Shown here piece by piece: positions 2,013-2,135 of a DNA stretch of 64,000 nucleotides. The DNA lies in the NCBI RefSeq assembly GCF_988242995.1, contig NZ_OZ547043.1. One strand, given 5' to 3'. Made by a program: the position numbers and the translations under genes. The notes under the pieces were generated by a model. It was not told where the DNA came from, searched no databases, and saw only the letters and a program-made list of their open reading frames with translations. Position 1 is the stretch's first letter; each line of letters begins with the position of its first letter.

Positions 2013-2060
2013 ATGAAACACACACCGTTTTTCTTCGCATTCTTTTTTACCTTCCCCTGA
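2013..2060 (+). CDS. pheL: pheA leader peptide (Phe-rich, 15 aa)
   Basis: ATG at 2013 encodes [15 protein letters not shown], 7 Phe codons; precedes attenuator hairpin and pheA. Confidence 0.85.
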   Translation: [15 protein letters not shown]

Positions 2061-2107
2061 ATGGGAGGCGTTTCGTCGTGTGAAACAGAATGCGAAGACG
2101 AACAATA

Positions 2108-2135
2108 AGGCCTCCCAAATCGGGGGGCCTTTTTT
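2108..2135 (+). terminator. pheA attenuator terminator hairpin
   Basis: aggcctccc-aaatc-ggggggcct stem-loop followed by TTTTT, between pheL and pheA. Confidence 0.7.

Follow-up and report, generated by a model that had tools for sequence, protein, structure and literature searches.

A pheL-pheA attenuator with the commonest E. coli leader allele and a very probably neutral or near-neutral difference from K-12 at codon 4

The closest described system is the pheL-pheA attenuator of E. coli K-12. An attenuation model with alternative 1:2, 2:3 and 3:4 structures has been described (PMC3082878, Figure 1 legend), and pausing at the pheL hairpin was measured in vitro and is NusA-sensitive (PMC9291695). 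In a survey of 53 pheL genes, only the initiator AUG, the Phe codons with a regulatory role, and the UUC_CCC_UGA at the end were invariant in the conserved enterobacterial group of leaders (Gurvich et al., PMC3082878). At this terminal sequence an unusual +1 frameshifting takes place, at a level of 15%, on which the nascent peptide was reported to act through Pro5 and the three codons that precede CCC (PMC3082878). Here, we analyzed the pheL leader in a stretch of 64,000 nucleotides of contig NZ_OZ547043.1 (the window, which always means this whole stretch), with specific consideration of its fourth codon, which encodes Thr.

The leader element and its surroundings

The translation of 2013-2060 gave the codons ATG AAA CAC ACA CCG TTT TTC TTC GCA TTC TTT TTT ACC TTC CCC TGA. 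Seven of them, codons 6-8, 10-12, and 14, specify Phe, and they span 2028-2054. The reading frame closes with TTC CCC TGA at 2052-2060, which is the UUC_CCC_UGA ending of the conserved enterobacterial pheL group (Gurvich et al. 2011, PMC3082878). A Shine-Dalgarno motif 5' of pheL, as found here, is also marked in the Figure 1 legend of that study. Two ORFs with TTG starts lie over the leader on the opposite strand, 1995-2105 (36 aa) and 2047-2118 (23 aa), and both were rejected as unsupported. Upstream of the leader, a TTGACA hexamer was seen, which is presumed to be the -35 box of the pheL-pheA promoter, in line with the pheA promoter of K-12. A scan of 1850-2250 with the sigma-70 consensus did not call a promoter, because the -10 region that follows the perfect TTGACA is weak.

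The preliminary description had recognized pheL with its attenuator from the letters alone, and both Rfam and RefSeq bore this out. The Phe_leader family (RF01859) matched 2012-2137 with the whole of its model (positions 1-125 of 125), at 132.2 bits, compared with a gathering cut-off of 55, and an E-value of 1.9e-24. In thousands of genomes, RefSeq labels the same stretch pheL and 'Phe leader region'. Seven Rfam matches were obtained in the whole window, and among the leader-peptide attenuators Phe_leader was the only family to score.

The Rfam consensus structure was mapped onto the window, and the minimum free energy (MFE) fold agreed with it on the outer helices of the 1:2 hairpin (Table 1). 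In this hairpin, the 5' arm consists of the run of Phe codons together with ACC-TTC-CCC. In the predicted full-length fold, the leader codons at 2051-2056 pair with 2063-2068 and thereby sequester segment 2. The antiterminator was predicted by folding 2060-2125, that is, without segment 1. In this predicted fold it is incompatible both with the 1:2 hairpin and with the terminator, the 5' arm of which is destroyed by the antiterminator pairing. The terminator stem contains 10 pairs, 7 of them G-C, and a loop of 5, and its T run ends 23 nt before the ATG of pheA. A hairpin had been placed at 2108-2135 beforehand, correct to within one base of the boundaries found here. In a consensus scan, four terminator-like sites were detected, against 0.5 expected in shuffled sequence. 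The pheA gene lies directly downstream of the leader element in the same orientation.

Table 1. Coordinates of the leader, RNA, and gene features of the pheL-pheA region (window numbering)
Feature	Position	Strand	Description
Presumed -35 box TTGACA (pheL-pheA promoter)	1958..1963	+	seen in the sequence; same in K-12
Shine-Dalgarno AAGGA of pheL	2001..2005	+	7 nt 5' of the ATG; same in K-12
pheL leader ORF	2013..2060	+	15 codons and TGA; RefSeq WP_001386991.1 'pheA operon leader peptide PheL'
Variant base	2023..2023	+	C in the window (ACA, Thr4, codon 2022-2024), T in K-12 (ATA, Ile4)
1:2 pause/protector hairpin	2027..2103	+	Rfam consensus structure mapped onto the window; MFE fold agrees on outer helices, -32.9 kcal/mol
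1:2 outer helices	2027-2030/2100-2103, 2032-2045/2085-2098, 2047-2050/2080-2083	+	Rfam consensus, MFE fold
1:2 inner hairpins	2053-2056/2063-2066, 2067-2070/2074-2077	+	Rfam consensus
Antiterminator, segment 2:3	2062..2117	+	predicted; UGGGAGGC 2062-2069 pairs with GCCUCCCA 2110-2117
Intrinsic terminator/attenuator, segment 3:4	2107..2135	+	stem 2107-2116/2122-2131, T run 2130-2135; Rfam, terminator scan, fold -19.0 kcal/mol
pheA (chorismate mutase/prephenate dehydratase)	2159..3319	+	intact ORF, 386 aa; annotated pheA in matching genomes

The gene order around the leader is rluD-bamD-raiA-pheL-pheA-tyrA-aroF, followed further on by smpB-ssrA and an island downstream of ssrA. The raiA gene (113 aa, 1568-1909) has a strong terminator at its end, with a stem at 1933-1952 and a T run, which abuts the TTGACA at 1958-1963. 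The annotation of the K-12 sRNA raiZ (b4805) maps to about 1795-1956 of the window, so its 3' end adjoins the pheL promoter.

Several features were noticed further along the window. About 127 nt in the rpsP-ffh spacer (10722-10848) are absent from the genome of strain EC21GDE043. It is an intergenic element of the presence/absence type, with internal inverted repeats, and 2,225 of the 5,426 E. coli genomes have it, each at one site. Downstream of the ssrA tmRNA (20007-20369, tag ANDENYALAA), an integrated island reaches to about 28000. In the closest genome, this island is annotated with an integrase, a SIR2-family protein, an ATP-binding protein, and a phage polarity suppression protein, and Rfam matches to isrK, C4 antisense RNA, and c4-a1b1 were found in it at 27547-27832. 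The island resembles a P4-like satellite or a defence island; in other genomes, a NACHT-domain gene stands at the same spot after ssrA. In addition, a tRNA-Met (CAT) gene was found at 39941-40016 on the minus strand, and a match to naRNA4 (CssrE) at 48252-48328 on the plus strand.

Comparison of window positions 1-25000 with 5,426 complete E. coli genomes gave a best match of only 97.9% identity, to EC21GDE043, followed by ST2747 strains. The match to EC21GDE043 consists of two blocks with 98.06% and 97.75% identity. The window may come from an Escherichia lineage that is mosaic or sparsely represented, or from an organism that is not filed under E. coli, for example Shigella.

The K-12 leader, the alleles of E. 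coli, and the polarity of codon 4

The leader was compared with pheL of K-12 MG1655 (b2598, NP_417089.1, NC_000913.3 2737599-2737646), which lies in the same locus, raiA-pheL-pheA-tyrA-aroF. The two leaders agree in length, in the seven Phe codons, and in the UUC_CCC_UGA ending. Within the ORF or the Rfam element (2012-2137), base 2023 was the sole difference in an alignment of 301 nt, and over 2024-2146, which takes in the RNA segments forming 1:2, 2:3, and 3:4, no base differed. This alignment had been proposed in the preliminary description, with Thr4 in K-12 named as the outcome that would speak against its reading; the translation of MG1655 pheL has Ile4 (ATA), just as stated there. Its statement that the Phe-codon run and the attenuator hairpin are intact was also correct, every base of both being the same in K-12.

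Two further differences were found outside the leader element. Position 1991, between the presumed promoter and the Shine-Dalgarno motif and possibly near the transcription start, is G in the window and A in K-12, while position 2147, between the terminator and the pheA start, is T in the window and A in K-12. At the equivalent positions E. albertii has G, as in the window, and A, respectively. In pheA, two synonymous changes are present at codons 6-7, and the PheA proteins differ at 3 of 386 residues (383 identical, 99%).

Next, the exact 48-nt ORF was searched in 5,426 complete E. coli genomes, 5,414 of which have the ORF. The window allele with Thr4 was present in 3,564 genomes (66%), the K-12 allele with Ile4 in 1,392 (26%), and a third allele, which also encodes Thr4 and has ATC instead of ACC at codon 13, in 428 (8%), leaving about 30 genomes (under 1%) with other alleles. 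When the K-12 ORF was used as the query, 4,986 genomes were matched rather than 5,414, and the missing ones were exactly the 428 genomes with the third allele, because two mismatches leave no 28-nt seed. The three counts of the census are therefore consistent, and they place Thr4 in about three quarters of E. coli genomes and Ile4 in a minority.

The window leader is thus the commonest E. coli allele; it is not the window that deviates, but K-12 that has the minority form. The window allele is also already known, as a RefSeq protein record: WP_001386991.1, found for example in E. coli DA33135, EC21GDE043, and O157:H7 PV15-279, has an identical peptide and an identical 48-nt ORF, without any difference in the leader. 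Strains DA33135 and 1403KP were 100% identical to the window over 1900-2200, and an identity of at least 99% over this region was found in 586 of 5,425 genomes.

The third allele encodes the peptide of RefSeq WP_001700969.1, and its change at codon 13 is equivalent to window position 2050. In both of the two genomes inspected it was linked to a T-to-A change at the equivalent of 2062, 2 nt after the stop codon. With the codon 13 change, a C-G pair predicted in the 1:2 hairpin becomes U-G, and the T-to-A change takes away the U-A pair at the end of the predicted antiterminator. Replacement of the same Thr codon by Gly raised +1 frameshifting by about 50% (Gurvich et al., PMC3082878). A different change was seen in E. 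coli PCN061 (NZ_CP006636.1), where the pheL stop codon TGA is AGA, resulting in a read-through ORF of 31 codons, the TAA of which lies immediately 5' of the terminator stem; in RefSeq, this pheL is labelled a pseudogene. If the stop loss is real and not a sequencing error, translation would continue across segment 2, and abnormal behaviour of the attenuator would be expected.

To place codon 4 in a wider context, species-representative genomes were scanned with a degenerate pattern for a 10-residue stretch of PheL, and at least 120 stretches were matched. E. albertii was the only other Escherichia species among the matches listed, from which E. fergusonii, the cryptic Escherichia clades, and an E. 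coli representative were absent. The type strain E. albertii NBRC 107761 encodes the same peptide as the window (MKHTP...), with ACT as the Thr4 codon; its synonymous differences are CAT, ACT, and TTC at codons 3, 4, and 6. The architecture of its leader is as in the window through the terminator to the pheA start, with a few substitutions and 1-nt indels at loop and stem positions. Because Thr4 is common to E. albertii, which is one outgroup among the matches listed, the ATA of K-12 is likely to be the derived state. On this comparison, Thr4 is probably ancestral in Escherichia, and Ile4 would have arisen later by a C-to-T transition, now seen in the quarter of E. coli that is K-12-like.

In 118 Enterobacterales species, namely the matches listed in which a start codon precedes the Phe run at a distance of five codons, residue 4 was L in 25 cases, V in 19, K in 18, T in 17, D in 9, F in 7, R in 7, I in 6, Q in 4, P in 2, and E, A, H, and S in one each. 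Fourteen different residues were therefore found at this position, while the part of the leader matched by the pattern was constant, in a sample that was selected by that pattern and is uninformative on the conservation of the pattern's own 10 residues. At the sequence level, the spread at position 4 is the signature of an unconstrained residue, which resembles what was concluded from the survey of 53 pheL genes (Gurvich et al., PMC3082878). In Yersinia pestis and Y. similis, no ATG, GTG, or TTG was found exactly five codons before the Phe run; instead, an in-frame GTG is located six codons upstream (GTGATTCTCAATAAAGTG-TTT...). An IS1541 insertion between pheL and pheA has been reported for Yersinia (Gurvich et al., PMC3082878).

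Residue 4 and the regulation of pheA

Taken together, the locus is very probably a standard E. coli pheL-pheA attenuator with the commonest natural leader allele, in which Thr4 versus Ile4 is a neutral or near-neutral polymorphism. Base 2023 is located 5' of the Phe run and of every regulatory helix. When the RNA of 1994-2137 was folded, its pairing probability was 0.02 with the C of the window and 0.13 with the T of K-12, and the MFE structure was identical with either base, at -51.7 kcal/mol. As far as these folding models go, an effect of base 2023 on RNA folding could be ruled out, structure and energy being the same for both alleles. Regulation that is unchanged relative to K-12 is well supported by the sequence comparison, and we infer that regulation would also be quantitatively equal.

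It is very unlikely that the exchange of Ile4 and Thr4 alters regulation. Such an effect might arise from ribosome timing at the ATA or ACA codon, or from the influence of the nascent peptide on termination or +1 frameshifting at UUC_CCC_UGA, and would be seen in basal pheA expression. ATA is a rare codon in E. coli and is read by a minor tRNA-Ile, and the arrival of the ribosome at the Phe run, and hence the basal read-through, could differ slightly between the ATA and ACA alleles, with K-12 as the slower one. Furthermore, +1 frameshifting is sensitive to nascent-peptide residues that include Pro5, the neighbour of residue 4, and basal pheA expression is dependent on release of the ribosome at the stop codon of pheL (PMC3082878). 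However, changes in frameshifting left pheA expression unaltered in Salmonella, and the text of that study contains no effect of codon 4 (PMC3082878). The 14 residues that occur at position 4 across species, the wide distribution of both alleles in E. coli, and the unaffected predicted RNA structure also argue against altered regulation.

Slimmer still are the chances that the two common E. coli alleles are non-equivalent in the sense that the ATA codon of K-12, or Ile instead of Thr beside Pro5, shifts timing or termination and thereby the basal set-point of pheA expression. In that event, measurements of phe attenuation based on K-12 would be unrepresentative of most E. coli. For the neutral or near-neutral polymorphism that we favour, the significance of the base is very small, apart from a lesson about annotation and reference bias: a sequence that differs from K-12 should not be taken as a variant on that ground.

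A sequencing or assembly error at 2023 would fit a single-base difference from the reference strain, yet it has next to no probability and is refuted by the allele census: the identical 48-nt ORF is present in 3,564 independent complete genomes and has a dedicated RefSeq protein record, and Thr4 is found in E. albertii as well. Equally negligible is the notion that the ORF and the hairpin are chance features without a functional leader, which has the shortness of the ORF and nothing else in its favour and is refuted by the full-length Rfam match (E = 1.9e-24), the position directly upstream of pheA, the recurrence of the same ORF with the 10-residue stretch and stop codon in pattern matches from 118 species, and the excess of terminator-like sites (4 versus 0.5 expected in shuffled sequence).

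The attenuator in comparison with known systems

The mechanism of attenuation has been established for K-12, and for the window we infer it from sequence identity. RNA polymerase would pause after the 1:2 hairpin, and meanwhile the 15 codons of the leader would be read by a ribosome. If Phe-tRNA is ample, this ribosome would be expected to reach the UGA, and the 3:4 terminator (2107-2135) would then form and end transcription ahead of pheA. When Phe-tRNA is scarce, the ribosome would instead stall at the seven Phe codons (2028-2054) and cover segment 1. Segment 2 (2062-2069) would then pair with segment 3 (2110-2117), no terminator would form, and pheA would be transcribed. From its sequence, this genome should therefore exhibit Phe-dependent attenuation of pheA in the textbook way.

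The same logic applies to the leaders trpL, hisL, leuL, thrL, and ilvL, in which a short ORF with many copies of the regulatory codon is combined with alternative 1:2, 2:3, and 3:4 structures, and the operon is preceded by an intrinsic terminator (PMC3082878, PMC9291695). These leaders differ from pheL in their regulatory codons, and their sequences are unrelated to it.
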